Source of the DNA: Alphaproteobacteria bacterium
GTDB taxonomy: Bacteria; Pseudomonadota; Alphaproteobacteria; Sphingomonadales; Sphingomonadaceae
DNA: 41,263 nucleotides
Direction: 5' to 3'
NCBI GenBank assembly: GCA_031412175.1
Contig: JANOCM010000134.1
Span: 1-41,263 of the forward strand
Part shown: in pieces, positions 1,888-28,607 of the stretch
How positions within the stretch are numbered: the stretch's first letter is position 1
How the letters are laid out: each line of letters starts with the position of its first letter
The notes under the pieces: generated by a model
Seen by the model: only the letters and a program-made list of their open reading frames with translations
Told to the model about the DNA's origin: nothing
Databases searched by the model: none
Made by a program: the position numbers and the translations under genes

Positions 1888-1947
1888 CGACCCGATGTGG
1901 GTCATTCAGCGCTCACTGACCGCTGCCCGAAACCGGACGTCCATTCA
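1888..1947 (+). repeat. 60-bp junction motif, copy 1 (alignment with copy 6 extends to 2067)
   Basis: cgacccgatgtggGTCATTCA-N17-CCCGAAACCGgacgtccaTTCA, with the same spacing as the copies at 18366, 24701 and 28548. Confidence 0.85.
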
Positions 1948-2104
1948 TCTGAATGTATCGCGCGCGCTGGCGGGCAGAGCCGGCCACTCGGAACGACTTG
2001 CCTTGGGACTTTGCAGTCGTTTCCGGCGGGGTCGCTGAACGTCAGTTCACGCTGGGGGCAGACATCCACGCATCCTAACAACTGCTCCCTCAACGCAAAT
2101 GGAC

Positions 2105-2143
2105 TTGACAGAGTGAACGTTACCATTAGAGTGAACGTTATCA
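2105..2143 (+). promoter_or_regulatory. sigma70 promoter overlapped by tandem LacI-type operators
   Basis: TTGACA (2105-2110), 16-bp spacer, TAGAGT (2127-2132). AGAGTGAACGTTA occurs at 2110-2122 and 2128-2140. The AACGTT core is typical of LacI-family operators. Confidence 0.75.
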
Positions 2144-2188
2144 AAAAGGGTATGGTGCGGGCAAACCGCGTCCACCGGGGGGTTCGTT

Positions 2189-5170
2189 ATGACGGGAATT
2201 GGATTGCGAACGCGCATAGTTTGTGGCGTTAGCGGCCTGACCTTGGCTTTGGCCACGAGCGCCCAGCCAGCGTTGGCACAGGCCGCGGCGTCTGCTGCCC
2301 CCGCTGATGAATCAGAGATTATTGTCACCGGGATCCGCGCTAGCCTTCAACAATCGTTGAGCATCAAACGCGACGCTCTGGGTATCGTCGACGCGATTTC
2401 GTCTGAAGATATCGGCAAGTTCCCCGATACCAACCTTGCTGAATCGCTGCAGCGCATCACCGGCGTGTCGATCGACCGCCAGAACGGCGAAGGCTCCAAA
2501 GTTACCGTCCGCGGCTTTGGCCCCGATTTCAATCTGGTGCTGCTGAACGGCCGCCAGATGCCGGCGTCGGGACTGGGCAGTTGCTGCGAAGCGCCGGCCT
2601 CGCGCAGCTTCGATTTCGCCAACCTCGCCGCTGAAAGCGTTGCCGGGGTGGAAGTCTACAAGTCGGGTCGCGCCACGCTGCAATCGGGCGGCATCGGTTC
2701 GGTCATCAACATCAAGACCCCGCGTCCGCTCGATCGCCCCGGTTTCAAGGGCAGCATCTCGGTCAAGGGCGTCATCGATCACACCTTTGAAAGCACGAAG
2801 ATCACCCCGGAAGTATCCGGCATCCTGTCCAAGACCTTTGCTGACGATCGCGTCGGCATCCTTGTCACCGGCGTGTATCAGCGTCGCAAGGCGAGCCTGG
2901 CGCAGTTCAACGCCGGCTGGCGTGAAGGTTATGTCGGCAATGAAAACAACTGGGGTTCGCTGCCGGTTGACGCCAACGATTGGCGCGGCAACTTTGCCAA
3001 CACCGAGAACCGGCCGGGTCCGACCGATATCTATCAGGTCACCCAAAATGCGGGCTATGATTTCACCGATATCGATCGTGAACGCATCAACGGCCAGGTC
3101 GTGCTGCAGGTGAAACCCACCGATACGCTCGACATGACGCTGGACTATACCTTCTCGCAGAACACCATCGATGCCCGCACCAGCAGCATCGGCGTGTGGT
3201 TCAACCATAACAATACCAGCAGCAGCTGGACGGATGGCCCGGTTGCCGGTGCGAACTTCTATGCCGAAGCATTCGGCCCGGGCGAAGGCAAGGATCTGGC
3301 CATCACCGGTGCGCTGGCGGCCAACCGCAACATCAACAAGTCGCTCGGCGGCAATATCAAATGGGATGGCCCGGGCGGTCTGCGCCTCGAACTCGACGCC
3401 CACCATTCAACCGCCGAAAGCAAGCCGACCTCGCCTTATGGCAGCAACAGCTCCGTGGGTAGCGCCATCTTTGGCGTCGCCAGCCAGAAGGTTGATTTCA
3501 CCACCAAGATGCCGGTGATTTCGGTTGCCATGTATCCGGGTGCGGCCATCGACGCCTCCAACATCCGCCCGGCCGGCAACAGCTTCCGCAACGCCTACAT
3601 GAAGGACACCATCAACGAGGTGTCGCTGCGCGGAGGCTATGACTTCGAGTCGGACCTGATCGACAGCCTGGATTTCGGTGCCACCTATACCGAGAACAAG
3701 GTGCGCACAGCCTTCGCCGTCATCCAGAACGACAGCTGGGGCGGCACGTTGAGCGCCGCCGACACGCCGGATGGCCTTTACGCCATCACGCCGCTGGCGA
3801 CGGACCTGAAGGGCGTGGACGGTTCGCAGGATGCGTCCATCATCCCGAATTATTTCAAGGTCGATACCGCTGGCCTGGTGGCACTGCTGCAATCACGCAT
3901 CGGCATCTGCAACGCCAGTACCGTGCAAGGCGCCTGCCTCGCCAGCTTCGAAGGCACCGGCGCTACCGACCGCCGCATCCGCGAGGAAACCTGGGCGCCC
4001 TATGTCCAGACGGTGCACAAGTTCGATCTGGGCGACATGCGCGCCAATGTGCGGCTGGGCCTGCGCTATGAACGCACCACCATCTCGTCGTCGGCGTTGG
4101 TGCCGATCCCCAGCGGTGTGGTCTGGGTGGCAAACAATGAAATGAGCCTGATCGGCGGCGGAGCGCAGAGCTTCACCACGCTCAAGGGCAAGTATGACAA
4201 CTGGCTGCCGGCCTTCGATTTCGATCTTGCGCCGATCGACAACGTGCGTCTGCGTGCTTCGTACAGCCACACCATCACCCGTCCGGACTATACCAGCATG
4301 CAGGGTGGCATCACGGTGAACCAGCCGCTGCGCCCGAACGGTGGCAGCACCGCCGGCAGCGGCAACCCGGGCCTGCTGCCCTACAAGTCGAAGAACATCG
4401 ATCTGGCGGCCGAGTGGTATTATTCGAGGGCCAGTTACATCTCGGTGGGCTTCTTCCACAAGAATGTGAGCAACTTCATCGGCAACACCACTACCCAGGG
4501 CCCGTTGTTCGATCTGCCCAACCCGGCGCAGGGTGCGGCCGTGCAGGCGGCGCGCACGGCGCTGGGCGGTAACCCCGGTTTTGCCGAAATCCTGGCTTAC
4601 CTGGCAGTCACCCAGCCGAGCGTGGTGCAGCTGACCAACGGTGTGCCGACCGGCATCATCGGCCAAGCCGGCGATCCCAAGGTGGTGTTCACCAGCACCG
4701 TTCCGAGCAACAGTGCCCAGACCGCCAAGCTGCATGGCTTCGAATTCGCCGTTCAGCACAGCTTCTGGGATACCGGCTTCGGCGCCATCCTGAACTACAC
4801 GATCGTGCGCAGCGACACCAAGTTCGACAACACGCTACGTTACACCGCCACCCAGTTTGCGGTGAACGGGATCAGCGACAGTGCCAACGCCGTGCTCTAT
4901 TACGACAAGAACGGCATCCAGGCCCGTGTCGCCTATAACTGGCGCGATGGCTTCCTGGCCAGTTACGGCTTTGATCCCTCCTACATCGATCCCTATGGCC
5001 AGTTCGACGTTTCCGCTTCGTGGGAATTCAAAAAGGGTCTGACGGCGTTCGTGGAAGGCATCAACGTCACCAATGCCGATCGCCGTGGCCACCAGCGCAG
5101 CAACCAGGCGGTGACCTTCTCGGCGCCGGGTTATGCGCGCTACACCGCCGGGGTTCGCTACGCCTTCTGA
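2189..5170 (+). CDS. TonB-dependent receptor, probably for beta-glucosides/glucan oligomers
   Basis: Signal peptide, TonB box EIIVTG, plug motif EDIGKFPDTNLAESLQRITGVSI, C-terminal Phe, 993 aa. Substrate is inferred from neighbouring genes. Confidence 0.95.
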   Translation: MTGIGLRTRIVCGVSGLTLALATSAQPALAQAAASAAPADESEIIVTGIRASLQQSLSIKRDALGIVDAISSEDIGKFPDTNLAESLQRITGVSIDRQNGEGSKVTVRGFGPDFNLVLLNGRQMPASGLGSCCEAPASRSFDFANLAAESVAGVEVYKSGRATLQSGGIGSVINIKTPRPLDRPGFKGSISVKGVIDHTFESTKITPEVSGILSKTFADDRVGILVTGVYQRRKASLAQFNAGWREGYVGNENNWGSLPVDANDWRGNFANTENRPGPTDIYQVTQNAGYDFTDIDRERINGQVVLQVKPTDTLDMTLDYTFSQNTIDARTSSIGVWFNHNNTSSSWTDGPVAGANFYAEAFGPGEGKDLAITGALAANRNINKSLGGNIKWDGPGGLRLELDAHHSTAESKPTSPYGSNSSVGSAIFGVASQKVDFTTKMPVISVAMYPGAAIDASNIRPAGNSFRNAYMKDTINEVSLRGGYDFESDLIDSLDFGATYTENKVRTAFAVIQNDSWGGTLSAADTPDGLYAITPLATDLKGVDGSQDASIIPNYFKVDTAGLVALLQSRIGICNASTVQGACLASFEGTGATDRRIREETWAPYVQTVHKFDLGDMRANVRLGLRYERTTISSSALVPIPSGVVWVANNEMSLIGGGAQSFTTLKGKYDNWLPAFDFDLAPIDNVRLRASYSHTITRPDYTSMQGGITVNQPLRPNGGSTAGSGNPGLLPYKSKNIDLAAEWYYSRASYISVGFFHKNVSNFIGNTTTQGPLFDLPNPAQGAAVQAARTALGGNPGFAEILAYLAVTQPSVVQLTNGVPTGIIGQAGDPKVVFTSTVPSNSAQTAKLHGFEFAVQHSFWDTGFGAILNYTIVRSDTKFDNTLRYTATQFAVNGISDSANAVLYYDKNGIQARVAYNWRDGFLASYGFDPSYIDPYGQFDVSASWEFKKGLTAFVEGINVTNADRRGHQRSNQAVTFSAPGYARYTAGVRYAF

Positions 5171-5194
5171 CAACGGCGCGAAGACACGGGTCGC

Positions 5195-5230
5195 AGAAGA
5201 GCCGCACGCACCCCGCGTTGCGGCTCTTCT
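5195..5230 (+). other. Intercistronic stem-loop without U-tract (mRNA stabiliser or partial terminator)
   Basis: AGAAGAGCCGCA (5195-5206) pairs with TGCGGCTCTTCT (5219-5230). Confidence 0.65.
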
Positions 5231-5267
5231 CATGCTCTGCCAGTCTAGGCGGTGGGAGACGACTTGA

Positions 5268-6791
5268 GTGACGGGTGACAAACCATTTCGGGTCGTGATT
5301 GTTGGCGGCGGCAGCGCCGGCTGGCTCACCGCCTGCGTGGTCGCTGCCCGCCAACCCGACCTGGCCATCACACTGGTCGAATCGCCCGATATCCCGACCA
5401 TCGGCGTGGGTGAAGGCACCTGGCCCACGATGCGCGAGACGCTGGCCAGCATCGGCATTGCCGAAAGCGAATTCCTCGTCGCCTGCGATGCCGCATTCAA
5501 GCAGGGTTCCCGCTTCGATGGCTGGGTGACGGGCGAAGCCGGCGATTCCTATCTTCACCCCTTCACCCTGCCACCTGCCGGCGACATGGCGGCGCTGCTG
5601 CATGCGTGGGCGGCCCATGCGCCGGGCGCGGCCTTTGCCGACGTGATGACGGCGCAGGCCGCCGCCTGTGCGCAAAGCCTGGCCCCGCGCCAGCGCGGCA
5701 TGCCGGATTATGCCGGCGCGCTGAATTACGCCTGTCATTTCGACGCCGGTAAATTCGCCCGGCTGCTTGCCCGCCATGCCACGCAGCGCCTTGGTGTCAC
5801 CCACATCGCTGCCGACGTGGTGGCCACAACGGCGGCGGCCAATGGTGATATCGCTGCGCTGTTGCTGAACGATGGGCGCGCGCTTGGGGCAGAGCTGTTC
5901 ATCGATTGCACCGGACAGGCCGCGCGGCTGATCAGCGGCCATTGCGGGGTGGAATGGATCGACCGGTCCGACGTGTCGTTCAACGATCGCGCCCTCGCCG
6001 TGCAGGTGCCGGTGCTGCCCGGCAGTCCGGTGGCCTCGCAAACCATCGGCACTGCCCACCGCGCCGGCTGGGTCTGGGATATCGCGCTGCCCACCCGGCG
6101 CGGCATCGGCTGCGTCTACGCCTCGCGCTTCATGGCCGATGACGAGGCGAATGCGGTGTTGCGCGCGTACATTGCGGCGCATGTGCCGGGCGCCGATGTT
6201 TCCACGCTGGCCCCGCGCAAGCTCAGCTTTGCCACCGGGCACAGGGCGCGCTTCTGGCAGGGAAATGTGGTCGCCGTGGGCTTGTCGGCCGGCTTCATCG
6301 AGCCGCTGGAAGCATCCGCCATCGTGTTGATCGAGCTTTCGGCGCGGGCGCTGGCCGATGCACTGCCGGCGTCCCCGGCGGTGATGGCGGTGCAGGCCAG
6401 CCGCTTCAACGCGCAGTTCCGCACCCGCTGGGATCGCATCGTCGCCTTCCTGAAACTACACTATGTGCTGAGCCGCCGCACGGAGCCGTACTGGCTGGCG
6501 CAGCGTGACCCGGCGACCATTCCGGAGCGGTTGGCCGAAAACCTGGTGCTGTGGCGCGAACACCCCCCGTCGGCGCGGGATTTCCCGCTTCACGACGAGA
6601 TGTTTCCGGCCGCCAGCCAGCACTATATCCTCTATGGCATGGGCCACGCTCTGCCACTGCCGCCGCCGGATGCGGCCGTCGCCAGCGCGGCCGCCCGCAT
6701 CGCTGAGGTGCAGGAACGCGCGCGCCGCATCGTCGCCGCGTTGCCCGAAAACCGCACCTATCTGGCCGCCGTAGCGGCCCAAGCCGCCTGA
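5268..6791 (+). CDS. Tryptophan halogenase family flavoprotein 1
   Basis: GGGSAG FAD motif, IGVGEGT, conserved Lys in [14 protein letters not shown] (variant of WxWxIP), FIEPLEAS. Confidence 0.92.
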
Positions 6792-6804
6792 GGATCGTTC
6801 AAGG

Positions 6805-7530
6805 ATGCCACCCGTGCCCGACCACCAGATCCTCAACCATTCCGATCATGCGGAATTGCGCGTGCTTGTCGGCGCTGGCGCCGGCCTGGGCGATGCGGTG
6901 ATGGCCTGCCTCGCTGTGCCGGCCGAATTCCGCCGGCTGGCCTGCGATTATCCCATCCTGTTTCGCCAGGATGATGACAGCGGCGAATTTTCAGCGCTGG
7001 CGCTGTTCGGCTTCGAGCCGGGCGAGAACCTGTTTCTCGATGGCGACCAGTGGGATGCCGTCAATCGCCCGCTGGCGATGGTGGTGCAGCCGTTCCTGGT
7101 GGGCCGCAGCCGCGACGCCGAGCGGCCGGGCCAGGTGCATATCGACATGGAGCATCCGCGCGTGTCCCGGACGGGTGAAGGCGTGAAGCTGTTCGAGCCG
7201 AGCGGCGTGCCGACGCCCTATCTCGAACAGATTGCCGACATGCTGGGCGCGCTTGATGTCAGCTACCGGGCCAGCGGTGATTTTTATGCCGCGCTCACCC
7301 GCTGTGACCTGCTCGAACCCTTTTCGATGGATGTGACGCTGGACAACGGCGCCATGCACCGGCTGGTTGGCTATCACCTGATCGCCGAGGAACGGCTGGC
7401 AGCGCTGGAACCCGCTTTGCTGGCCGAACTGCACGCCGCGGGCTATCTGCTGCCGATCTACATGGCGGTGGCCTCGGTCGGGAATCTGTCGCGGCTGGTG
7501 CGCCGCAAGAAGCGACGCGGCGATGGCTGA
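6805..7530 (+). CDS. SapC family protein
   Basis: EFRRLACDYPILF, ALFGFEPGENLFL and YMAVASVGNL motifs, in the usual position between halogenase and cupin genes. Confidence 0.88.
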   Translation: MPPVPDHQILNHSDHAELRVLVGAGAGLGDAVMACLAVPAEFRRLACDYPILFRQDDDSGEFSALALFGFEPGENLFLDGDQWDAVNRPLAMVVQPFLVGRSRDAERPGQVHIDMEHPRVSRTGEGVKLFEPSGVPTPYLEQIADMLGALDVSYRASGDFYAALTRCDLLEPFSMDVTLDNGAMHRLVGYHLIAEERLAALEPALLAELHAAGYLLPIYMAVASVGNLSRLVRRKKRRGDG

Positions 7531-8545
7531 GGCGACCGTTCTGGCGCGTCTGCAGCGCGTCGCCGAGGAACAGGTGACGCCGGCGGCGCTGGCCGATCGG
7601 CTGGCTGGTGCCACCACGCCATTCGTGGTGCGCGGGCTGGCGGCGGAATGGCCGTTGGTGAAGGCCGGTTTGCAAGGCGCAGACGCGGCGCGCGCCTATC
7701 TGGCGGCCAAGGCCCGCAATCGCAACTTCCCGGTCAGCATCGGCCAGCCAGCCGGGGGCGACCGCCTGTTCTATGACGATGCGATGGGCATGAATTTCCG
7801 CATGGCGTCGGGGCCCTTGTCCGGGCTGCTCGATGCCATCGCGGCCGCCGAAACCGACAGCGAGGCGCCGGCCATCTATCTCTCATCCATCGACATGGGC
7901 GATTATTTCGAGGGGCTGGCCGAAGCCAACGCGCTGTCGCTGGGGGCTCGCAACCCGATTGCCAGCATCTGGATCGGCACCCGCACGTGCATCGCTGCCC
8001 ATAATGACGTGCCCGACAATGTGGCGGTGTGCGCGGCCGGACGTCGCCGCTTCACGCTGTTTCCGCCCGAACAATTTGCCAATATCTACCTTGGTCCGCT
8101 GGAAAACACTCCGGCAGGCCGCCCGGTGAGCATGGTCGATGTGCGCGCCCCCGATCTGGCGGCGCACCCGCGTTTTGCAGAGGCGCTGGCCCACGCGCAG
8201 GTGGCCGAACTGGAACCGGGCGACGCGATCTTCGTGCCGTCGCTGTGGTGGCACCATGTCGAAGGCCTGGCGCCGTTCAATATCCTGGTGAATTACTGGT
8301 GGCGCGACGTACCGCGCTGGCTGGGCAACCCGGAGGATGCGCTGTTGCATGCCATTTTGGCCGTGCGCGACCTGCCGGCAGAACAGCGCGAGCGCTGGCG
8401 CGCGCTTTTTGCGCATTATGTGTTTGCAGCCACCGATGACGTGACCGCGCATCTGCCGCCCGCTGGCCGCGGAATATTGGCGCCGCTCACTGCGGCCACC
8501 GCCGGCCAGATCAAAGCCCGTTTGTTGAGAGGATTCTCGCGATGA
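7523..8545 (+). CDS. JmjC-like cupin (Cupin_8, Pass1-related) protein
   Basis: IWIG, HxD (AHNDVPDN), LEPGDAIFVPSLWWHHVE, NILVNYWW. Confidence 0.9.
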   Translation: MAEATVLARLQRVAEEQVTPAALADRLAGATTPFVVRGLAAEWPLVKAGLQGADAARAYLAAKARNRNFPVSIGQPAGGDRLFYDDAMGMNFRMASGPLSGLLDAIAAAETDSEAPAIYLSSIDMGDYFEGLAEANALSLGARNPIASIWIGTRTCIAAHNDVPDNVAVCAAGRRRFTLFPPEQFANIYLGPLENTPAGRPVSMVDVRAPDLAAHPRFAEALAHAQVAELEPGDAIFVPSLWWHHVEGLAPFNILVNYWWRDVPRWLGNPEDALLHAILAVRDLPAEQRERWRALFAHYVFAATDDVTAHLPPAGRGILAPLTAATAGQIKARLLRGFSR

Positions 8546-10038
8546 TGGACAGAAAACTGCGCGTGGTGGTGGCCGGTGGCGGCACCGCAGGCTGGATGAC
8601 CGCGGCCGCGCTGGCCCGCACGCTGGGGCCGGTGATCGATCTGACGCTGGTTGAATCCGATGCCATCGGCACCGTCGGGGTGGGCGAAAGCACCATCCCG
8701 CCGATCGTGCTGTTCAACCGCCTGCTCGGCATCAAAGAGGCCGAGTTCATGCGCGCCACACAGGCGACCTTCAAACTCGGCATCATGTTCGAAAACTGGA
8801 AGGCTGTTGGCGCGCGCTACTTCCACAGTTTCGGCAACACCGGCAAGGATCACTGGTCAGCCGGCTTCCAGCATTTCTGGCTGCACGGCCAGACGCAGGG
8901 TCATCATCAGTCCTATGACGACTATTGTCTCGAACTGAAGGCTGCCGCAGCCGGCAAGTTTGCGCATCTGCCCGAAGATCGCATGAACTATGCCTATCAG
9001 CTCGATTCCTCGCTTTACGCAGCGTTCTTGCGCCGACTGGCCGAGGCCGATGGCTGCAATCGGATCGAAGGACGGATTGCCAGCGTCGAACTGGACGGCG
9101 AAACCGGCGATATTGCTGCGCTGCGGCTCGATGGTGATCGCCATATCGAGGGGGATCTGTTCATTGATTGCACCGGGTTCCGCGCACTTTTGATCGAAGG
9201 TGCACTGCACGCCGGCTATGACGACTGGAGCCATTGGTTGGCGTGCGATGGCGCGGTCGCCATCCAGACCGCCAACGTCCGCCCGTCCGTGCCCTATACC
9301 CGCGCCATTGCACACGAAGCCGGTTGGCAGTGGCGCATCCCGCTGCAGCATCGCGCCGGCAACGGCATCGTCTATTGCAGCCGCTACATGAGCCAGGACG
9401 CGGCGCTCGAACGCCTGCTGGGCAGCATCGAGGGCAAGACGCTGACCGAACCTAACCGGATTCGCTTCACCACCGGCGCACGCCGCAAGCAATGGCATCG
9501 CAACTGCATCGCCATCGGCCTGTCGAGCGGCTTCATGGAGCCGCTTGAATCGACGAGCATTCACTTGATCCAGCGCGCCGTCTTGCGCGTGGTCCGGATG
9601 CTGCCCACCTGCCGGCCGAGCGCGCGCGACATTGCGGAATTCAATGACCAGCAGTTCACCGACATGGAGCAGATCCGCGATTTCCTGATCCTCCACTACA
9701 AGGCAACCGAGCGCCGCGATTCGCCCTTCTGGCATCATTGCGCGGCGATGGAGATTCCCGAAACACTCGCCCACAAGATCGAATTGTTCCGCGAAACCGG
9801 ACGGGTTTTCCGCCGCAATGAGGAACTGTTCGTCGAAAACAGCTGGGTGCAGGTCATGATGGGCCAAGGCATCATGCCGCAAACCTATCACCCCGTCGCT
9901 GCCAAGCTGACAGGCGCGGAACTCACCTATCTTTTGCAGTCCTTGCGCGACGGCGTGACGCGTACCGTCGATAGCTTGCCCGCGCATGGCGACTATGTCG
10001 CCCGCTATTGCGGTGTGCGGGAGGATCGCGCCGCGTGA
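8542..10038 (+). CDS. Tryptophan halogenase family flavoprotein 2
   Basis: GGGTAG, QATFKLG, WQWRIPL, FMEPLESTS. ATGA overlap with the upstream cupin gene. Confidence 0.93.
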   Translation: MMDRKLRVVVAGGGTAGWMTAAALARTLGPVIDLTLVESDAIGTVGVGESTIPPIVLFNRLLGIKEAEFMRATQATFKLGIMFENWKAVGARYFHSFGNTGKDHWSAGFQHFWLHGQTQGHHQSYDDYCLELKAAAAGKFAHLPEDRMNYAYQLDSSLYAAFLRRLAEADGCNRIEGRIASVELDGETGDIAALRLDGDRHIEGDLFIDCTGFRALLIEGALHAGYDDWSHWLACDGAVAIQTANVRPSVPYTRAIAHEAGWQWRIPLQHRAGNGIVYCSRYMSQDAALERLLGSIEGKTLTEPNRIRFTTGARRKQWHRNCIAIGLSSGFMEPLESTSIHLIQRAVLRVVRMLPTCRPSARDIAEFNDQQFTDMEQIRDFLILHYKATERRDSPFWHHCAAMEIPETLAHKIELFRETGRVFRRNEELFVENSWVQVMMGQGIMPQTYHPVAAKLTGAELTYLLQSLRDGVTRTVDSLPAHGDYVARYCGVREDRAA

Positions 10039-11015
10039 TCGCCGCCGGGTTTGCCGCCGTGTTTGCCGCCGTGCTTGCGCCTGTCCTCGCTGCTGCCATC
10101 GCCGTCGCACCGGTGCCGGCGCTGTCGCCGCCCGGCCCCGACTGGCAACTGGCCTGGGCCGACGAATTCGACGCGCCTGCGATCGATCCGACCAAATGGA
10201 CGCTTGCCGATGATTGCTGGGGCGGCGGCAACGCCGAACGCCAATGCTACACCGGCCGCGCTGCCAATGCCCGGATCGCGGATGGCCAGTTGCTAATCAT
10301 CGCGCGCCGCGAGGGCCATACCGGCCCGGCATTCCCGATCGACCAGCGCACCGGCACCGACCGGCGGGGGCAGGCCAGCCGGCCCTTCACCTCGGCGCGG
10401 CTGAGCACGCACGGCAAGGCGGCCTGGCGTCACGGCATCATCGAAGTGCGCGCCCGGTTGCCGCAGGGGCAGGGGCTGTGGCCGGCGATCTGGATGCTGC
10501 CCGAAGACAACCGTTATGGCCCATGGCCGGCTTCGGGCGAAATCGACATCACGGAGGCGGTCAATCTTGGGGAACCGTGCCGCACCGGCCAGCCCGGCTG
10601 CGTGAAGGGCCAGGAGCGCGGCGTGCTCGGCACCCTGCATTTCGGCGGCGTGCCACCGGCCAACCGCCACCGCGGCACCACTACCGCCATGCCGGCGCCG
10701 CTGGACGGCTATCATGTCTATGCGGTGGAATGGAGCCTCGACGCGATCCGCTGGCGCATCGACGGCGTCGATTATGCCGCCCAATACCCCGGTGACTGGT
10801 CAACGAGCGGGTCGAACGCTGCGGGGGCGCCGTTCGACCAGCCTTTCCACCTCGTGCTCAATCTTGCCGTCGGCGGCCATCTGCCCGAACAGCGCAACCG
10901 CGGCGGCGTGACAATGAAGGGCTTTCCCAGGACAATGGCGGTCGATTGGGTGCGCGTCTGGCAATGCACCGGCGATGGGGCTAGCAAGGCGCGTTGCGCG
11001 GCAACCGGGGACTGA
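10035..11015 (+). CDS. GH16 laminarinase-like endo-beta-1,3-glucanase, secreted
   Basis: GTG start overlaps the upstream stop. Hydrophobic N-terminus, WADEFD, GLWPAIWML, catalytic EIDITE, APFDQPFHLVLNLAVGG. Confidence 0.93.
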   Translation: MIAAGFAAVFAAVLAPVLAAAIAVAPVPALSPPGPDWQLAWADEFDAPAIDPTKWTLADDCWGGGNAERQCYTGRAANARIADGQLLIIARREGHTGPAFPIDQRTGTDRRGQASRPFTSARLSTHGKAAWRHGIIEVRARLPQGQGLWPAIWMLPEDNRYGPWPASGEIDITEAVNLGEPCRTGQPGCVKGQERGVLGTLHFGGVPPANRHRGTTTAMPAPLDGYHVYAVEWSLDAIRWRIDGVDYAAQYPGDWSTSGSNAAGAPFDQPFHLVLNLAVGGHLPEQRNRGGVTMKGFPRTMAVDWVRVWQCTGDGASKARCAATGD

Positions 11016-11023
11016 ATTTCAAC

Positions 11024-18317: not shown

Positions 18318-18365
18318 GCATGTAAAGGTTCCTCGTTGTCGACCGACCTAAACCGCCGCCGCACG

Positions 18366-19941: not shown

Positions 19942-19989
19942 CGCAGGTTTCCTTGAACGCAAGTTATCACATGGTAGCGCGCCTTGCCA

Positions 19990-20127
19990 TCAGGCGAGGC
20001 GCGCAGCAGCCGGGGCGTCGCCGCTGGCAGCGATCTCGAGCAGCGCAACGCTGCCGCCGACCGAGCCGATGCAGAGCAGCAGCGCAACGACGAACCCCAG
20101 GGTTCGGGCGTGGTTCTGGTAACACAT
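19990..20127 (-). CDS. 45-aa single-pass membrane or secreted peptide
   Basis: GGAGA RBS 6 nt before ATG. Product MCYQNHARTLGFVVALLLCIGSVGGSVALLEIAASGDAPAAARLA. Lies between the predicted promoter and the TPR gene. Confidence 0.6.
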   Translation of the reverse strand: MCYQNHARTLGFVVALLLCIGSVGGSVALLEIAASGDAPAAARLA

Positions 20128-20180
20128 GATGGTTCTCCATTTGTCAGCCGGCGGGAAAGTCCCGTTCGGCGACACTGGCA

Positions 20181-20236
20181 ATAGTAAGAAAGCGTAAACC
20201 CGGCCGCCGTCGCAGCGTGAAAATGGCGTGAAAATG
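20181..20236 (-). promoter_or_regulatory. Candidate SARP/OmpR-type direct-repeat binding site and -10 box
   Basis: GCGTGAAAATG occurs twice with 11-bp period (20215-20236). A related CGTAA lies at 20193, and minus-strand TACTAT at 20181-20186. Confidence 0.6.
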
Positions 20237-20317
20237 TGCCGTCGCCAGCGACCGTGAAATTTTTGTGCCGATCGGTTAAGAGCGACGGCACTGGCTGACC
20301 ACCGCAGGAACCCGGCG

Positions 20318-23300
20318 TTGCTCGACCTCGAAATCCTCGGCGGATTCACCCTCCGCGACTCGCAGGGCGCGCCGCTGGCGCTGCCCAAGAAAGCGCGTGC
20401 GCTGCTCGCCTATCTGGCGCTCGCCGAAGGCCGGCCGCAGCCGCGCGAACGCCTGGCGGCGCTGTTGTGGGAAGACGGCGCCGACGATCAGGCGCGCACC
20501 AACCTGCGGCAATCGTTGGCAGTGTTGCGCCGCAGCGTCCCCGGTGCCGGCTGGCTGGTAGCCGATCTCGATGCGGTCGCCATCGATCCGGCTGCCTTCC
20601 GCATCGATGCCGTTCGTTTCCAGGCGCTGGCGGCGGGTGATGCGGCGCAACAGGCGGAAGCGGCGGCGCTGTATCGCGGTGACCTGCTCGACAGCCTGCA
20701 CATCGTCGAATCGGGCTTCGAAAGCTGGCTCGCCGCCGAACGGGCGCGGTTGCGCGACACTGCGATCCGCCTGCTGGAAACAACGGCAGCGGCGGCACTC
20801 GCCGATCGCCGCACCGATGCGGCGCTGGCGCTGGCCGGGCGGCTGGTGGCGCTCGATCCGCTGCACGAGGCGGGTTGCCGGCTGGCGATGCAGGCGTGCG
20901 TGCAGGCCGGCCGCACGGGTGAGGCGCTGCGCCAGTATCGCCAGCTGCAGGCGCGCCTGCGCCGCGACCTCGGCGTGGCTCCCGAGGCGGAGACGACGGC
21001 GCTCCACCATGACATTGCCGGGCGCCGCCGCCAGCGCGCAACCCCTCGCGTGGCAGTGGGCGAGCATGACCCGGACGATGCTGCGCCGCCGGACGCCCCT
21101 GCCGAAGCGCCGGCGCGCGCTGCCGATCCGGTGCAGGCGCGGCGCGAGTTGCGGCGCATGGCGGTGCTGTCGGCCGGCATCGCCGGCTATGCGCGGCTGT
21201 CGGCCGAATGCGATCTCGAACATCTCCACCGCCTGCTCGCCGCCTGGCACGCGGCGATCGCCGAGGAAACCGCGCGCGCCGGCGGTGTCGTCCACGAAAC
21301 CATGGGCGACACCGCGCTGGCGGTGTTCGGTCGCGACCGCGCCAGCGACGACGATCCGGCGCGAGCGCTGGCGGCGGCGCTGGCGATCCACCGCCGGATG
21401 CCCGCGCTCGCCGCAGCCGTCGGCACGACGCTGCAGGCCCGCATCGGGCTCGCCGCTGGCCCGATGTTGTTGACCGAGGCCGGCACCGGCAATGCCATCA
21501 TCGGCGAGGCGATGACCGCCGCCGCCAATCTGCGGGCATTGGCCGAACCCGGCGCCACGCTGATGGCCGACGCCTTTCGCGCCGAAATCGGCGACACCTT
21601 CCGCGCCGAGATCGGCGATGCCGCGGGCGCCGCGCCGCCGCCGCTTTTTGGCCGCGCCGCCGAACAGCGCCAACTGACCGGGCTGCTGGCCATCGTATGC
21701 AGCGGCGCCGGGGCGTCGGTATGCCTGCGCGGCGAGCCCGGCATCGGCAAGTCGCGCCTCGCCGATGCCATCATTGCGGCGGCGCGCGATCGCGGTGTCG
21801 CGGTCCATTGCGCCCAGCTCGCCGATTTCGGCCCCTTGTCGACCCAGTCGCCGCGGCGGCAGCTGGCGCGCAGCCTGCTCGGCCTCGACGGCGGCGACGG
21901 GCTCGACGACGGACTCGAACGCAACCCGTTTGCCCTGGCGCTCGGCGCGGCGCGGCTGCCGTGGCTCTACCAGTTGACCGGCAGCGCTGCGCCGCGCAAG
22001 CTGGGCCACCAGGTCGAAGCTAACCTGGCTGCCGATCCGGCCGCTGCGCGCGCGGAAAGTTTCCGGCTGCTGCTCGGCACCGCCGCCGCCGAAACGCCGC
22101 TGCTGCTGGTCGTCGAGGACGTCCATTGGGCGACCCCCGACGCGCTGCGCCAGCTCGCCGACCTGACCCATGCCGTCGAGACGCTGCCGGTGCTGCTGAT
22201 GCTGACCAGCCGGTCCGAGCCCGACCAGCTCGATCTTGCCTGGCGCGCCACCGCCGGCGCGCTGATCACCATCGACTTGCGGCCGCTGGCCGAAAGCGAT
22301 TCGACGGCGCTGGCGCAGGATTTCGCCGGCGTGCCCGCGGAAGCCGCCGCCACCTGCGTGGCGCGCGCCAACGGCAATCCGCTGTTCCTCACCCAGTTGC
22401 TAGCGGCGGTCCGCGATGGCGCCAGTGCCGCGACGGCGCTGCCCGGCAGTGTCCAGAGCCTCACCCTCGGCCGCATGGATGGGCTCGGCGCCGCCGAACG
22501 CCACGCGCTGCGCGCCGCCGCGGTGCTCGGCCAACGGGTGCCGATCGCTGCCGTCGCGGCGGTCGCCGATCTCGACGGCTATGCGCCGTCGCCGGCGGTG
22601 CTCGGCACGCTCGTCACCAGCGACGGCGAACGTCTCAGGTTCGTCCATGCGCTGGTCCGCGACGCCATCTATGCCAGCCTGCTCGAATCCGAACGCGCTG
22701 CGCTGCATCGCGCCGCCGCCGCGTGGTACCACGGCCGCGACGTCGATCTCGTCGCCGAACACCTCGCCGGCGCGCGCGAGCCGGATGCCGCCGCCGCCTT
22801 TGCCGCGGCGGCGAATGCGGCGCTCGCCCGGCACCGCGCCGACAAGGCGCTGGCGGCGGTGGCGCGGGGGCTCGCGCTGGCCGGCGACGGCGCGGCGGGT
22901 GCCGCCGATCGCCACCGCCTGAAGCTCGTCGAATCGGCAGCGCGGGCGCGGGCGCTCGATCTCGCCGGCGCCGCCGATGCCGCCGTGGCCGCTGCTGCCG
23001 ACGCGCCCGATCCGCTTGGCCGCGCCCAGGCGCTGATCCTGCAGGCGACAGCACTCAGCGGCCGGCAGCAGGCCGACGCGGCGCTTGCCGTCCTTGGCGA
23101 AGCCGAGGCCGCCGCCGGCGATGTTGCCGGCAGCGGCAGCGCCACGACCGCCCATGCCGAAACGCTGGCGCGCATCCACGCGCTGCGCGGCAACATCCAC
23201 TTCCCACTCGGCCGCCTCGACGTCTGCCTCGATGCCCATCGCCAGTCGCTGCTCTGGTCGAAACGCGCCGGCACCGCGATCGCCGAGGCCGGGGCGCTCG

Positions 23301-24175
23301 TCGGCCTCGCCTGGGCGCACTACCAGCGCGGCGATTTCGCCGCCGGCGAGCGCGAGGCCAGCGCCTGCCTCGCCATCGCCGGCGACGATGCCTTCGATCG
23401 CATCCGGCTGTCGGCACTGCGCGTGCGCGCCGTCTGCCGGGTATTCCTGCTTGCCCATGCCGGCGGCCTCGACGATGCCACCGCCGCCATCGCCTTGGCG
23501 CGTGAGCAGGGCGACGTCGTCAACGAATGCCTCGCCCGTACCACCGCCGGCACTATCCATCTCGAGCAATGGCAGCATGACGCGGCGCTGGCGATGGTCG
23601 AGCCGGCGCTGCAACTTGGCGACAGGCTCGGCGCCATCGGGCTGGATGCAGCACCCCTGTGGGTCAAGGGCACCGCCGTCGGCGCGCTGGGCGACGGAGC
23701 CGCGGCACGCGCGATCCTCGAACAGGCGCGGGCGCAGGGGCTGCGCGGCAAGGCGATCCGCTTCGCAGTGCCGCGCATCATTGGCACGCTGGCGTTCTTT
23801 GTGCCCGCGGCGCGCCGCCCCGAACTCGTCGCCGAGGGCGAGGCGCTGCTCGCCCGCGCCGGTGTCGCGCATTCGGCCTTCGGCTTCTACGGCTCGCTCG
23901 TCCATATCGGCCTGCGCGATGCCGATTGGGACCTCGCCGACCGTTGCGCCGCCGGGCTGGCGCGCTACGCCGGGCCCGATCCGGCGCCTTGGGCGGCGGC
24001 GCTGGTGACCATGACGAGATTGTTCGCGGCAGTTGGCCGTGGCGAGGCCGATGCCGAAACCGCCGCCGCCGCCGCGCGCTTCCACGCCGATGCCCGCCGC
24101 AACCGCGCGCTTCACTGGCTGCGCCCGGCCATGACCGCGGTCGAGGCCCACGCGACCATCGGCGTGACGCCGTGA
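20318..24175 (+). CDS. SARP-type wHTH + BTAD + class III cyclase-like + STAND ATPase + TPR transcriptional regulator
   Basis: KARALLAYLAL, REwHTH-type RERLAALLW, ARTNLRQSL, ALYRGDLL, LDPLHE, GDTALAVFG, RIGL, Walker A GEPGIGKS, Walker B LLVVEDVHWA, GNPL, helical C-terminus. TTG start is uncertain. Confidence 0.9.
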   Translation: MLDLEILGGFTLRDSQGAPLALPKKARALLAYLALAEGRPQPRERLAALLWEDGADDQARTNLRQSLAVLRRSVPGAGWLVADLDAVAIDPAAFRIDAVRFQALAAGDAAQQAEAAALYRGDLLDSLHIVESGFESWLAAERARLRDTAIRLLETTAAAALADRRTDAALALAGRLVALDPLHEAGCRLAMQACVQAGRTGEALRQYRQLQARLRRDLGVAPEAETTALHHDIAGRRRQRATPRVAVGEHDPDDAAPPDAPAEAPARAADPVQARRELRRMAVLSAGIAGYARLSAECDLEHLHRLLAAWHAAIAEETARAGGVVHETMGDTALAVFGRDRASDDDPARALAAALAIHRRMPALAAAVGTTLQARIGLAAGPMLLTEAGTGNAIIGEAMTAAANLRALAEPGATLMADAFRAEIGDTFRAEIGDAAGAAPPPLFGRAAEQRQLTGLLAIVCSGAGASVCLRGEPGIGKSRLADAIIAAARDRGVAVHCAQLADFGPLSTQSPRRQLARSLLGLDGGDGLDDGLERNPFALALGAARLPWLYQLTGSAAPRKLGHQVEANLAADPAAARAESFRLLLGTAAAETPLLLVVEDVHWATPDALRQLADLTHAVETLPVLLMLTSRSEPDQLDLAWRATAGALITIDLRPLAESDSTALAQDFAGVPAEAAATCVARANGNPLFLTQLLAAVRDGASAATALPGSVQSLTLGRMDGLGAAERHALRAAAVLGQRVPIAAVAAVADLDGYAPSPAVLGTLVTSDGERLRFVHALVRDAIYASLLESERAALHRAAAAWYHGRDVDLVAEHLAGAREPDAAAAFAAAANAALARHRADKALAAVARGLALAGDGAAGAADRHRLKLVESAARARALDLAGAADAAVAAAADAPDPLGRAQALILQATALSGRQQADAALAVLGEAEAAAGDVAGSGSATTAHAETLARIHALRGNIHFPLGRLDVCLDAHRQSLLWSKRAGTAIAEAGALVGLAWAHYQRGDFAAGEREASACLAIAGDDAFDRIRLSALRVRAVCRVFLLAHAGGLDDATAAIALAREQGDVVNECLARTTAGTIHLEQWQHDAALAMVEPALQLGDRLGAIGLDAAPLWVKGTAVGALGDGAAARAILEQARAQGLRGKAIRFAVPRIIGTLAFFVPAARRPELVAEGEALLARAGVAHSAFGFYGSLVHIGLRDADWDLADRCAAGLARYAGPDPAPWAAALVTMTRLFAAVGRGEADAETAAAAARFHADARRNRALHWLRPAMTAVEAHATIGVTP

Positions 24176-24366
24176 CGTACACCGACCGATGATCGGCCAT
24201 GGCTTGGCCGAGGCGGCGGATGAAAACCTCGGCATTGGCAGCGGGCTGCATGTCGGGAAGTGCCGGCTCGGGCCTCAGGGTCAGTATCCAAAAGCCAACG
24301 GCAATGGGCAGCGATAGCCGGAGTTTTGCTTGGCGCTGGCGCGCGGCACGCGCGGCACCAGCCGGT

Positions 24367-24648
24367 TCACGGCGACGCGCCGGCCGTAAGGTCGAGAACG
24401 ACGATTTGAATAAGCGGGCGGCGGCTCTCCGGAATCCGCTCTGCGAGCAGCGCCCGCATCGCGTCGGCGGTCGCGGACGCCGCAACCCCGTCGGGGTGCG
24501 CCTTGAGGCACCGGTTCGTCGCGGACGGCAGGTCCCCGAACCAGAGCGCGCGATAGATACCGCGCTGCTCCGAACGCCAGCTGGTCAGGCACTGCAGGTC
24601 GAGCTGGCCGGTCGCGGCGTCCCAGGCATCCGCAAGCCACGGCCCCTT
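24367..24648 (-). pseudogene. 3' remnant resembling the C-terminal nuclease-like domain of large NACHT/STAND proteins
   Basis: KGPWLADAWDAATGQLDLQCLTSWRSEQRGIYRALWFG...IQIVVLDLT resembles a KGQW..W.AA..QL...Y..DWR....GIY.VLWFG...VVLDL pattern recalled from memory. No credible start codon. Confidence 0.55.
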
Positions 24649-24700
24649 GAACGAACGGACATCAAGCGGTGAGTGGCGCCCCAAGGCGGACGGGCCGGTT

Positions 24701-24760
24701 TACACCATATGCAGTCATTCAGAGTTGGTTATTCGTTCCCCGAAACCGGGCGTCCGTTCA
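24701..24760 (+). repeat. 60-bp junction motif, copy 5
   Basis: tacaccatatgcaGTCATTCA-N17-CCCGAAACCGggcgtccgTTCA. Confidence 0.85.
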
Positions 24761-24833
24761 TATGACGGTGTCGCTGGCTCCGCCAGGCGGTACCAGGAGC
24801 TCGGGCGGATCATCCACATCGCTGTCAGTTCGC

Positions 24834-26192
24834 TCACCCGGTAGAGACGGCACGGGCAGATGCCGGGGTCATATCCTGCCCCCATGATGTGCGCGCCATC
24901 GCCAGGACCGACGCCAGCCCATAGGCGACCAGCGCCAGCCCGATCAGCGCGAAGATCGCCCAGAGATCGGCGCCCTCGCCAAGCAACCACCAGCCGCCGC
25001 CGGCAACAACTGCCAGTCGTAGCGTGCCGGCCAGCACCATGCCGCCGACCCGTCCCGCCGGCATGGAGGCGAAGTACAGGCATATTCCGGCACCAAAGAA
25101 GCCATACGCCGGTCCCACCCAGCGGAAATACTCAGCCGTCGCGGCAAGCGTCGCGCTGTCGCTGGTGAACATCTGCGCCCATAGCGCCGGCCAGATCGCC
25201 AACACGAGCCCGATTATCGCCAAGCCGGCGCTTGCCACCGCCGCTGCTATCCACGCCGCCCGCCGCGCGCGCGCCACCATCCCCGCACCCATCGCCGTGC
25301 CGACGAGGGGCACCGATGCCACCCCGATGGCAAAGGCGATGGGCGTCAACAAAAACTCCAATCGGACGCCGATGCCGAACCCGGCCAGCGCCGTCGCACC
25401 GAAGCCCGCGACCAGTCCATTGAGGATGACGATGGTCAACACTGTCTGAAACGGCGAAATGCACGCTGTCGCCCCGACGCGCAGTATTTCGGCAAAATAG
25501 CGCCAAGCCAGCGGTACCCGCCCCAGCCTGACGCGCGCCCGGCCCGATCGCAGGTACGCAAACAGGAACAGCGCGCCGGCTGAAGCCGCCACGACTTGGC
25601 CGGCCGCGACACCGGGCATTCCCAGCCGTGGCAATGGCCCCAAGCCGAGCCCCAGCGCGCCACCGATGACGATCTGCGCCACCGCCGTGCCGAGCAGCGT
25701 CGCCGAAGGCACGGCCATGTTGCCGGCACCGCGCAGCACGGCGGCAAACAGGTTCTGCAGCCACACTCCGATTGAGCCAAGGAAGGCCACGCCGGCGAAC
25801 GCCACCGCGGCCTGGAGCGCTGGGCCGCGGCCGCCCGTTGCTGCCAGCAGCGCCGGCGCGAACACCAGCATCAACACGGTCGTGGTGCCACCAATGATGA
25901 TGCCGATCCACATGGTGTGCACCGCCAGCGCATCGGCACGCGCCGTGTCGCCTGCGCCCAAGGCGCGCGAGATTGCCGCCGATACGCCACCCCCCATGGC
26001 GCCGGCCGACAGCATCATCTGCAACATGATCAGCGGGAACACCAATGCCATGCCGGCCAACGCCGGCACGCCGAGCGCGCCGACATAGGCGGTTTCCGCG
26101 ATCGCCGCGATGGACCCGGCCAGCATTGCGCCCATGTTGGGCAACGCCAGGCGAAGCAGCGTCGGCAGGATCGGCTCCTCAAGAAGTGCCAT
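24834..26192 (-). CDS. MATE family efflux transporter
   Basis: PILPTLLRLALP, GAMGGGVSAAISRALGAG, RGAGNMAVP, AGFGIGVRLEF. The start could instead be the GTG at 26210. Confidence 0.92.
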   Translation of the reverse strand: MALLEEPILPTLLRLALPNMGAMLAGSIAAIAETAYVGALGVPALAGMALVFPLIMLQMMLSAGAMGGGVSAAISRALGAGDTARADALAVHTMWIGIIIGGTTTVLMLVFAPALLAATGGRGPALQAAVAFAGVAFLGSIGVWLQNLFAAVLRGAGNMAVPSATLLGTAVAQIVIGGALGLGLGPLPRLGMPGVAAGQVVAASAGALFLFAYLRSGRARVRLGRVPLAWRYFAEILRVGATACISPFQTVLTIVILNGLVAGFGATALAGFGIGVRLEFLLTPIAFAIGVASVPLVGTAMGAGMVARARRAAWIAAAVASAGLAIIGLVLAIWPALWAQMFTSDSATLAATAEYFRWVGPAYGFFGAGICLYFASMPAGRVGGMVLAGTLRLAVVAGGGWWLLGEGADLWAIFALIGLALVAYGLASVLAMARTSWGQDMTPASARAVSTG

Positions 26193-26339
26193 GTTGTCCG
26201 TTCGCGCCACACCGCTTCCCCGCATTGTCGCATGCATATTGGGGTGTAGAGGGCAACGAGTCGATGCGGCACCTGATGCAATTGTTTTGTCTGCCATCGA
26301 CCAGCGACTATGGCTGGCATCGATTGGGGGTATGCGACG

Positions 26340-28028
26340 ATGCGCAAGGGCTGGTGGTTGTTTCTGCTCGGGCTGGCGCTGGTCCTGGGCGGAGCGTGGC
26401 AGGCCGGCCGCATTCAGACCGCTGGCGGCATTGTGGTGCACGACGTCCGCTTTCGCTCGCCTGCCGGCACGCAGATGTGCGCGCTGCTCTATGTGCCGCC
26501 GAATGCCACGGCGGCGACGCCGGCGCCGGCCATCCTCGCCGTCCACGGCTATATCAACAGCCGCGAGACGCAGGCCGGCTTCGCCATCGAATTTGCCCGT
26601 CGCGGCTATGTCGTGCTGGCGCTCGACCAGACCGGCCATGGCTATTCAGGCGGCGCGGCGTTTTCCGAGGGCTTTGGCGGCCCGGCCGGACTGGCCTTTC
26701 TTCGCGGACTGCCGATGGTCGACAAGGCCAACATCGGCCTCGAAGGCCATAGCATGGGCGGCTGGACAGTCCTCGCTGCCGCCGCCGCCATGCCCGATGC
26801 CTACCGCGCGATGGTGCTGGAAGGGTCAGCGACCGGCAAGCCGTTTGCCGCCGATGGCACGCCGGCCTGGCCACGCAACCTGGCGCTGGTGTTCAGCCGC
26901 TACGACGAGTTCTCGAAATTGATGTGGGATGTCGACCGCGCACAGGATGTCGCGAGCAGCGCGAAATTACAGGCGCTGTTCGGCACCGCCGCCATCGCGC
27001 CGGGCCGAATCTACGGCAGCATCGCCGCCGGCACGGCCCGCCGCCTGACACAGCCGGTCGCGACCCATCCGGGCGACCACATCAGCCATGCCGCGATCGG
27101 CGATGCAATCGACTGGTTTGGCCGCACGTTGGAGGGTGGCACGCCCCTGCCCGCCGATGACCAGATCTGGTTCGGCAAGGAAGTCGCGACGGGCATCGCG
27201 CTCATCGGCTTCGTCAGCGTGCTCGTCGGCAGTTTCGACCTGTTGCTGGCGCTGCCGGTCTTCGCCGCGCTGCGCCGAGCGCCGCCGCCGGAGTTGCCGC
27301 GCCGCGACCGCCGCTGGTGGCGACAGTTCGCGCTGACGGCGCTGCTGCCGGCCGTCACCTTCTTCCCGGCGTTCATCGCGGTAACGCTGGCGTTGCCGCC
27401 GTCGGCGCTGCTGCCGCAAACGGTCACGACGCAAGTGATGTTCTGGGCTCTGATCAACGCCGGGCTGACACTGCTGCTGTCCCGGTTAGGTCCCCTGGCG
27501 CCGGCGCGTGCGACGCTTCAGTGGCTGCAGGCGGCATTCCTGGCGCTGGCGACAGCGGCCATCGGGTATCTGGCGCTGCTGGCGATGGCGGCGTGGTTCA
27601 CGGTCGATTTCCGGTTCTGGGTGGTAGCACTGAAGCCGCTCAGCCTCGACCAGTTTCGGATCGCGCTGGTCTATCTGGTGCCCATTACCTTTGCCCAGGT
27701 CGTAACGCTACGCGCGCTCGGCCGACTGGCGGTGGCAACGGACGGCTGGCTCTGGCGCTACGTCACTGCAATGCTGGCGCTGGCGGCAGGCTTCCTGCTG
27801 TTGCTTGTCGTCGACTATGGCATCTTCTTCGTGACCGGCCGACTGCCGACGGCGTTCGATCCGTTGACCACCGTCATCGCCATTCAGTTCGTACCGCTGC
27901 TGGCCACCGTTGCAGCTATCGGCACCTTTACCAGGGCACGAACAGGCAGCGCCGTGCCCGGCGGACTGCTATGCGGACTGCTGGTGACTTGGTATGTCGT
28001 TGCAGGTACCGCCACGCAGGTCCCCTGA
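26340..28028 (+). CDS. Alpha/beta hydrolase with multi-pass C-terminal membrane domain
   Basis: N-terminal anchor, HGY oxyanion region, GHSMGG nucleophile elbow, DEF and HPGDH, then several transmembrane segments. Confidence 0.88.
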   Translation: MRKGWWLFLLGLALVLGGAWQAGRIQTAGGIVVHDVRFRSPAGTQMCALLYVPPNATAATPAPAILAVHGYINSRETQAGFAIEFARRGYVVLALDQTGHGYSGGAAFSEGFGGPAGLAFLRGLPMVDKANIGLEGHSMGGWTVLAAAAAMPDAYRAMVLEGSATGKPFAADGTPAWPRNLALVFSRYDEFSKLMWDVDRAQDVASSAKLQALFGTAAIAPGRIYGSIAAGTARRLTQPVATHPGDHISHAAIGDAIDWFGRTLEGGTPLPADDQIWFGKEVATGIALIGFVSVLVGSFDLLLALPVFAALRRAPPPELPRRDRRWWRQFALTALLPAVTFFPAFIAVTLALPPSALLPQTVTTQVMFWALINAGLTLLLSRLGPLAPARATLQWLQAAFLALATAAIGYLALLAMAAWFTVDFRFWVVALKPLSLDQFRIALVYLVPITFAQVVTLRALGRLAVATDGWLWRYVTAMLALAAGFLLLLVVDYGIFFVTGRLPTAFDPLTTVIAIQFVPLLATVAAIGTFTRARTGSAVPGGLLCGLLVTWYVVAGTATQVP

Positions 28029-28142
28029 CGCTACATATTCGTCTGTGACGATGTCGTCAGGTCTTGGTGTGATCGCGTGACGTGCACTCACGTCCCCGCT
28101 TTCTTCCTGCGGCTTGAGTGCGAGTGTTCCGGCTGTGTGACC

Positions 28143-28188
28143 GCAAGTTAACTGGAAAGTCCGTAATTGCCCGAAGCGGTCGTTCGCA
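28143..28188 (+). repeat. 46-bp intergenic direct repeat, copy B
   Basis: 39/46 ungapped identity to 1781-1826. Confidence 0.85.
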
Positions 28189-28547
28189 TGCGAGGCGTCA
28201 CCGGGCACTCGCTGGAACCGCAGTCCAGATGGTCCCGATCAGCATAACGGCATTTATAACGACGATACCCGCCATCCCGAGCAACAGCCTCGCTGAGCAG
28301 GATCGGCCCGGGCCCATCAGAACGACATCCCCAATCCGAGAAGCACTTAGTGACGGACCGTTCTTGCCTCATAGTTTGAGTAGCGATATTCTAACTTCGA
28401 GTAGAAACTACCGCCCAAGCCCTGCTGAATTCCCGCACCGACCCGCAGGCTATCGGCATTGCCGGGAATAATTGTCGCAGGTCCAGCCGCCGGCGTGTAA
28501 TTTTCGCGCCAAGACGCGGAACCGGATCATTTTCCGACTGACACTCA

Positions 28548-28607
28548 CGACCCAGACCCGGACATTCATCGCCTCCGCTACCTCTCCCGAAAGCGGACAC
28601 TTGTTCA
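28548..28607 (+). repeat. 60-bp junction motif, copy 6 (alignment with copy 1 extends to 28727)
   Basis: cgacccagacccgGACATTCA-N17-CCCGAAAGCGgacacttgTTCA. Confidence 0.85.

Follow-up and report, generated by a model that had tools for sequence, protein, structure and literature searches.

In integrons, a tyrosine recombinase serves variable modules that lie between co-oriented sites, and arrays persist without the enzyme as CALIN elements (PMC4889954). The part of the same survey that deals with Alphaproteobacteria reports no integron, In0 or CALIN in 243 genomes and terms this absence "extremely puzzling" (PMC4889954). In Acinetobacter, pdif modules are bounded by short double-stranded sites, carry their own promoters, and recur as identical modules in different contexts (PMC9455709). 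GInts, SEs, ILEs, and RIT elements likewise combine tyrosine recombinases with variable island cargo, in the form of multi-gene recombinase operons with att sites only at the ends; the main-text descriptions mention no internal repeated sites, and report that SE and GInt core genes were not found in Alphaproteobacteria (PMC5385486, PMC10214605, PMC4542609, PMC5737581). Here we analyzed 41,263 nt of a member of the Sphingomonadaceae (assembly GCA_031412175.1, contig JANOCM010000134.1, positions 1 to 41,263; this whole stretch is "the window" below), in which copies of a 60-bp motif separate gene modules. We read these copies as probable double-stranded recombination sites of a cassette system run by a small mobile tyrosine recombinase. 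Comparisons among genomes, on which this reading is built, show the motif to mark exchange points, with modules moving from site to site and the recombinase gene being itself a module; the small enzyme would cut the sites, and modules may move as circles.

The system works like integrons and dif modules, yet fails their defining features. The tyrosine recombinase, the variable modules between co-oriented sites, and the persistence of arrays without the enzyme are shared with integrons and CALIN elements. Unlike the integron integrase, however, the enzyme consists of the catalytic domain only (PF00589) and falls far below the XerC, XerD, and IntI cut-offs (TIGR02249: 20.2 bits vs. 265), and, unlike attC, the sites lack a single-strand hairpin fold. 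The sequence-only reading, an earlier note made from the letters of the window, had likened the system to an integron; the analogy is a loose one, as a fixed attI/Pc platform is absent (here the enzyme gene is a module, with 20 different left neighbors) and the modules are 0.5–10 kb long, often multi-gene, and carry genes in either direction. Whereas pdif sites are dif-like, inversely oriented, and served by host XerCD (PMC9455709), the sites here share only the short double-stranded, module-bounding character: they are 60 bp long, one-sided, mostly in direct orientation, and associated with a dedicated mobile enzyme. In contrast to GInts, SEs, and RIT elements, a single stand-alone recombinase gene lies between sites. 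No description of the site or the enzyme family was found in the open-access literature (subscription journals lay outside its coverage), nor in the main text of PMC4542609, PMC10214605, PMC5385486, 10.1101/2024.06.12.598671, PMC8138268, PMC4889954, PMC9455709, and PMC5737581, whose supplements could bear on the point.

The sites and their exchange points

The sequence-only reading took the motif for a candidate cassette site and proposed a matrix scan of its own and related genomes, together with checks for enrichment at synteny breakpoints, proximity to tyrosine recombinases, and Rfam matches. The coordinates that it gave for the four main copies (starting at 1888, 18366, 24701, and 28548) were right, and so was the gap-free alignment with 23 of 60 positions invariant; within the window, the strict consensus pattern matches these four only. 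With a weight matrix trained on 319 sites from other genomes, the window copies scored 54.0, 50.8, 44.3, 43.8, 29.7, and 27.2 bits, and the next position −3.4, so the two degenerate copies that it had named (17643–17702 at 29.7 bits, and the inverted 17293–17352 at 27.2 bits) are real; the model also recovered every window copy in leave-one-out runs. The window's own assembly (3.3 Mb in 713 contigs, 80% complete) has 11 copies scoring at least 27 bits, compared with a peak of 7.8 in the reversed genome. The motif was not among the 20 largest families of a generic repeat finder.

The strict pattern occurs at 35 loci in 185,579 species genomes, and 34 of them are named Sphingomonadales; the sole other match (L032) is a contig of an Acidobacteriota metagenome-assembled genome, reflecting either transfer or mis-binning. 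A model based on sequence alone found copies in 58 of 149 genomes at the level of Sphingomonadaceae and in 0 of 148 other alphaproteobacterial families, both counts being lower bounds under strict filters. A relaxed pattern had no exact match in viral contigs. Five genomes reached through strict-pattern loci hold 4–51 copies each, and the matrix scan placed copies in islands, not spread through the core genome: of the 34 copies in G001, a complete genome, 88% lie within 10 kb of another copy, compared with 15% for random positions. The two sets of regions described next were picked because they hold sites. In 1.26 Mb annotated by a simple gene caller, overlap with a called gene was seen for 8 of 167 copies, although 80% of the DNA is coding, and all six window copies lie between genes, as the reading had stated; in 126 of 159 cases the upstream gene reads toward the site, and the downstream gene is on the site's strand in 75 of 159, i.e., either way. 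In 2.26 Mb, we counted 377 sites (none in the reversed control) at a median spacing of 2.1 kb (5–95% range 0.5–10 kb), with 208 of 238 neighboring pairs in direct and 30 in opposite orientation. Sites at a spacing of ~80 nt, without a gene between them, occur at L019:5807-5887, L156, and L164.

Site anatomy was derived from 145 non-redundant sites. Information content jumps at position 2 and stops at 61–63, which gives a sharp left edge. An asymmetric core (GACCCA, positions 2–7) is followed by a conserved right arm (9–21), and positions 39–55 are a direct repeat of 4–20, offset by +35 bp and ending in RTTCA, with the second core and arm spanning 39–60. The 17-nt spacer was earlier taken to be almost free in sequence, which was not borne out, as it has a C/T bias and CGCT ahead of the second CCC. 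Left of the core there is only a weak GNCNG, which belongs to the end of the upstream module. It fits best as the right arm mirrored about positions 4/5, with a score of −11.8 against a background of −16.6. Judged by the geometry of Cre, Xer, and attI sites, this layout would be a tyrosine-recombinase core with one poor arm and an accessory repeat; attI, too, consists of a core with an accessory direct repeat. Consensus pairing is absent in 62 aligned copies, and folds of single copies differ, which argues against an attC-like hairpin, and the consensus differs from that of dif; the earlier statement that the motif is neither attC nor dif agrees with both results. No internal inverted repeat was found in the site copies, and the Rfam scan of the window returned tRNA-Cys only, without a match at the sites.

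Two site classes can be told apart. Class A sites (GA-core) point along the array in 195 of 204 cases, and class B sites (CG/GC-core) point against it in 12 of 16; the inverted window copy at 17293 belongs to class B. Five back-to-back site pairs are 26–29 nt apart, and back-to-back class B/class A pairs with a recurring linker family are seen in G001 (L038, L045, and L046) and G003 (L058 and L064).

Homology between arrays breaks at the core. Among 388 internal ends of homology blocks, 62 fall within −6 to +12 of position 1, compared with 2.2 expected (maximum 9 in 200 draws), and many of the 62 involve related recombinase modules; without these modules, 14 of 77 block ends lie within −6 to +22, a count with no separate control. 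Loci L004 and L027 have 8 kb in common at 99.5%, beginning at position 2, and homology likewise breaks at the core in L004/L029, L012/L023, L023/L025, and L031/L035, the first two pairs also having a common module end followed by different sites. Within one genome, site-to-site modules are duplicated with different neighbors (480 bp at 99.8%, 3.44 kb at 95%, and 2.1 kb at 92%). In the closest pairs, an analysis that rests on named pairs only, position 1 goes with the left module (it is the same in 12 of 18 pairs with a common left side and in 3 of 11 with a common right side), and of the single core variants one tracks the left module and another the right, a pattern that in these few cases fits exchange across positions 2–7. 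By such comparisons, DNA to the right of the core is shown to move with the downstream module and DNA to its left with the upstream one, a module being a site plus its cargo.

The small tyrosine recombinase

Clustering of proteins from the arrays returned two recurring recombinase families. The small recombinase (P0001; 205–210 aa) has a site 3–13 nt past its stop codon and another ~170 nt before its start. We examined its flanks in 79 metagenome loci fetched by protein alone (best 80 of 542 confirmed, with a few duplicates). At loci with at least 84% identity, a site directly follows the stop in 45 of 56 and an upstream site (~170 nt) is present in 23 of the 53 with enough flank; below 84%, the corresponding counts are 2 of 17 and 0 of 20. 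As a control, a site was found within 300 nt of an arm-domain island integrase in 1 of 23 cases, that one being the query itself, and arm-domain integrases were rejected as the site enzyme on this ground. Large serine recombinases were also rejected, with none in the window's own assembly and an inconsistent position in three of five genomes.

Sites at recombinase loci are on the gene's strand in 102 cases and opposite in 2. The gene behaves as a module: downstream of 25 close copies lie 24 different modules, and the left flanks of 20 upstream sites all differ. A 790-bp recombinase unit matches two annotated Sphingomonas plasmids, the match starting at position 2 of one site and running into the following site, and one of these plasmids carries six co-oriented sites in 24.6 kb. 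In homologues at 60–83%, the arm word is found upstream in 31 of 53 loci (~6% in shuffles), and related palindromes, judged by eye, lie beside 50–75% homologues on plasmids of Methylobacterium, Pseudomonas, and Pantoea; the site type varies with the recombinase clade, and the arm word is kept. Tandem recombinase modules were seen at L117 and at G226:C7:439749-441311 (L201 and L207). No promoter or terminator consensus was found in the one recombinase module searched.

The R-K-H-R-H-Y set and the catalytic fold are present, with R56, K84, H153, R156, H179, and Y188 kept in 105–106 of 106 homologues, and the gene is evidently under strong purifying selection (differences per codon position: 0.053/0.022/0.359). 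The structure model (predicted local distance difference test, pLDDT = 86.5) has the catalytic domains of XerA, XerH, and Cre as its nearest folds. NF007371 is matched weakly, and Atlas and PDB sequence searches return only generic tyrosine-recombinase names. FimB/FimE-type invertases are also tyrosine recombinases of ~200 aa without the usual N-terminal domain, and TnpI-IRS of Tn4430 also joins a core site to direct-repeat accessory sites; Fim invertases flip one switch and TnpI resolves one cointegrate, and neither is known to build cargo arrays. The small recombinase is present in 65 of 200 genomes of the family, on 415 plasmids of many proteobacterial genera, and in at least 7,995 clusters at 90%; three phage records match it.

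In the window, the recombinase relic noticed in the sequence-only reading was confirmed at 17453–17529, next to an IS3-family (insertion sequence) fragment that it had not named. It consists of two catalytic-region pieces with an internal deletion and a frameshift; the candidate view of 17353–17642 as solely an IS3 relic was rejected, the recombinase relic being present there as well. No intact small recombinase was found in the 80%-complete assembly, and none of its tyrosine recombinase matches lies inside the window. The array of the window is likely dormant or served in trans because its enzyme gene is a relic and the assembly yielded no intact copy.

Proposed mechanism and competing explanations

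We propose that the enzyme would bind the arms of the site with the second repeat as an accessory aid, which may offset the enzyme's missing N-terminal DNA-binding domain, and that strands would be exchanged across the 6–7-bp core. Recombination between two co-oriented sites would excise a module as a circle, and the circle could reinsert at any other site, allowing arrays to grow and reshuffle without a fixed attI while core asymmetry would preserve orientation. Owing to the weak left arm, sites may also recombine with sequences that resemble them by chance and thereby take up new DNA, and arrays would outlast the enzyme.

The breakpoints on the core, the confinement to islands, and the link to the recombinase support the cassette-site reading, although several observations leave room for other explanations. 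The sites could be true exchange points for a different enzyme, host XerC/XerD or an island integrase, with the small recombinase as a passenger. Arrays are often found next to arm-domain integrases located at tRNA genes (9 regions), a site occurs 7–140 nt after an arm-domain integrase gene in G005 (C5 and C2), and many site-rich genomes have no intact small recombinase. The 1-in-23 control and the tracking of the small-recombinase clade by site type, with the arm word kept, make this rather unlikely; Xer, moreover, is near-universal in bacteria, yet the motif was not found in the 148 other families and the site does not resemble dif.

We also consider it unlikely that the motif represents the end of a transposon, or a short element resembling a miniature inverted-repeat transposable element (MITE) or a repetitive extragenic palindromic (REP) sequence, classes A and B being left and right ends used in one-ended or composite transposition. 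The sharp one-sided edge, the directly repeated boxes inside, the placement of class B against the array (12 of 16 vs. 9 of 204 for class A), and the position of the glucan locus between inward-facing class A and class B sites would suit such ends. Neighboring pairs are, however, direct and not inverted (208 of 238), shared suffixes of consecutive junctions are at the random level and reveal no target duplication, copies have neither an internal inverted repeat nor a common fold, no transposase family tracks the sites, and copies avoid genes and cluster as described above. That the motif is a transcription-factor site or a small RNA traveling with island genes is highly improbable: its fixed geometry and intergenic position would agree with either, but Rfam, the missing consensus structure, and the 75 of 159 downstream genes on the same strand speak against both, and the breakpoints on the core largely refute them, in line with the earlier argument against a regulator site.

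The reading as cassette sites served by the small recombinase has its own difficulties. A left arm as weak as the one found here is unusual in a tyrosine-recombinase core. Among eight genomes with at least nine sites, five have any enzyme match, two an intact close copy, and three none; of 60 genomes from the genus of the window, 8 match the enzyme, none at 84% or above. All four genomes with a match of at least 84% over at least 100 residues hold 5–12 sites. Any cargo gene is site-flanked, so flanking alone is no proof of a cognate enzyme, and the recombinase loci behind the 62 of 388 block ends and behind the flank counts are related to one another, with duplicate contigs among them. Among 200 modules we saw no clean empty site (A|C vs. 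A|B|C). Of the 133 joints between contigs of four runs and positions 14000–31000, the 15 listed include none at a site; contigs cannot reveal rare circles. Furthermore, G219 has the glucan locus and the hydrolase and MATE genes in one contiguous stretch free of sites, showing that window modules are not always units elsewhere, and 382 partial inter-module matches point to much decay via other routes.

On balance, we lean slightly toward regarding the system as a third type of gene-cassette system in bacteria, next to integrons and dif modules, with a minimal self-mobile recombinase, one-sided double-stranded sites that shuffle and create modules, and clade-specific site types across Proteobacteria (Methylobacterium, Pseudomonas, and Pantoea), filling an integron-free niche in Alphaproteobacteria. 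This would offer a testable answer to the absence of integrons, with sphingomonads assembling islands from modules by means of other parts, and would explain the stacking and swapping of their catabolic, efflux, regulatory, and defense genes. The one-sided conservation of the sites suggests a route to new cassettes, which is an open question for integrons as well. A simple profile suffices to find arrays, and a 205-residue recombinase with tolerant sites could become a compact tool for genome engineering.

Layout of the window

The window is an island with its edge at the tRNA-Cys gene (38204); matches to genomes of the same genus start at 38200–38204, and the assembly yielded no att duplication of the 3′ end of tRNA-Cys. 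Features are listed in Table 1. Contigs from sequencing runs bridge three of the window sites; the small-share runs X5 and X6 were given no weight in this comparison.

Table 1. Sites, cargo, and relics along the window
Feature	Position	Strand	Basis or remark
Class A site	1888..1947	+	GACCC core 1889-1894; scored by external matrix
Cargo: TonB receptor, two Trp-halogenase-family genes, SapC, cupin, GH16, LacI, MFS, GH3, MFS	1948..17292	.	Pfam
Class B site, CGCC-type core, against array direction	17293..17352	-	External matrix (27.2 bits); class analysis
IS3-family transposase fragment, 29 codons, one stop	17366..17452	-	tblastn with the IS3 open reading frame (ORF) of L025
Relic of small tyrosine recombinase gene	17453..17529	+	Matches intact genes at 78-94% nucleotide identity (25-58 nt)
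Degenerate site, start of DUF3617 module	17643..17702	+	29.7 bits
Cargo: DUF3617 gene (17802-18317)	17703..18365	+	Pfam
Class A site	18366..18425	+	Contigs from runs X1 and X2 span it
Cargo: 450-aa unassigned gene and divergent SARP/BTAD-cyclase-AAA regulator; 71% G+C	18426..24700	.	
Class A site, core slightly degenerate	24701..24760	+	Spanned by X1 contig
Cargo: MATE transporter and divergent alpha/beta hydrolase	24761..28547	.	
Class A site	28548..28607	+	External matrix
Cargo without further site: beta-helix/RTX-repeat protein, OsmC, SDRs, tautomerase, LysR, cupin, epoxide hydrolase	28608..38203	.	
tRNA-Cys	38204..38277	-	Island edge; core genes begin here

The first cargo stretch is bounded on the left by a class A site and on the right by a class B site that faces inward, and its TonB receptor, two Trp-halogenase-family genes, SapC, and cupin form a block at 2189–10038. 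A match of L017 to the window (186 nt, 72%) begins 4 nt left of the site at 1888. The IS3 fragment is supported at 38% over 29 aa (E = 1e-5 in a search space of 400 nt). In G213, a copy of the site at 17643 precedes a DUF3617 homologue in the same register with a different left flank, and G222 has the DUF3617 gene without the site; the module was not found in the 150 order-level genomes searched. Inversion of 17353–28547 between outward-facing sites would possibly recover the gene order of G219; that class B sites normally oppose arrays counts against it.

One label in the sequence-only reading did not stand: the gene at 18589–19941 (the 450-aa gene), called TPR there, has no family match in Pfam, NCBIfam, or PADLOC. 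No motif copy lies between the RTX-repeat gene and tRNA-Cys. The divergent regulator is 1285 aa long (20318–24175). Positions 24645–24700, just left of the site at 24701, hold an arm-like word in inverted orientation together with a degenerate second unit, possibly a decayed class B site.

After the sites at 1888 and 28548, a longer second shared element is found (1961–2085 and 28621–28745), composed of a hairpin and then an inverted arm-like word; the same hairpin element as at 1961–2085 is present in three other places (L017:8086-8175 and the window's own contigs C220 and C204). Short intergenic repeats of 80–85% lie at 1781–1829 and 28143–28191 in the window and at C443:84-132 and C705:1145-1183; some of them are probably relics of IS ends because the C705 copy precedes the start of an IS3-like ORF. 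Elsewhere in the assembly, contig C530 (3751–6612) holds a frameshifted arm-domain integrase, a site at 5317, a dehydrogenase-like gene, and a site at 6553, which together make up a small array.

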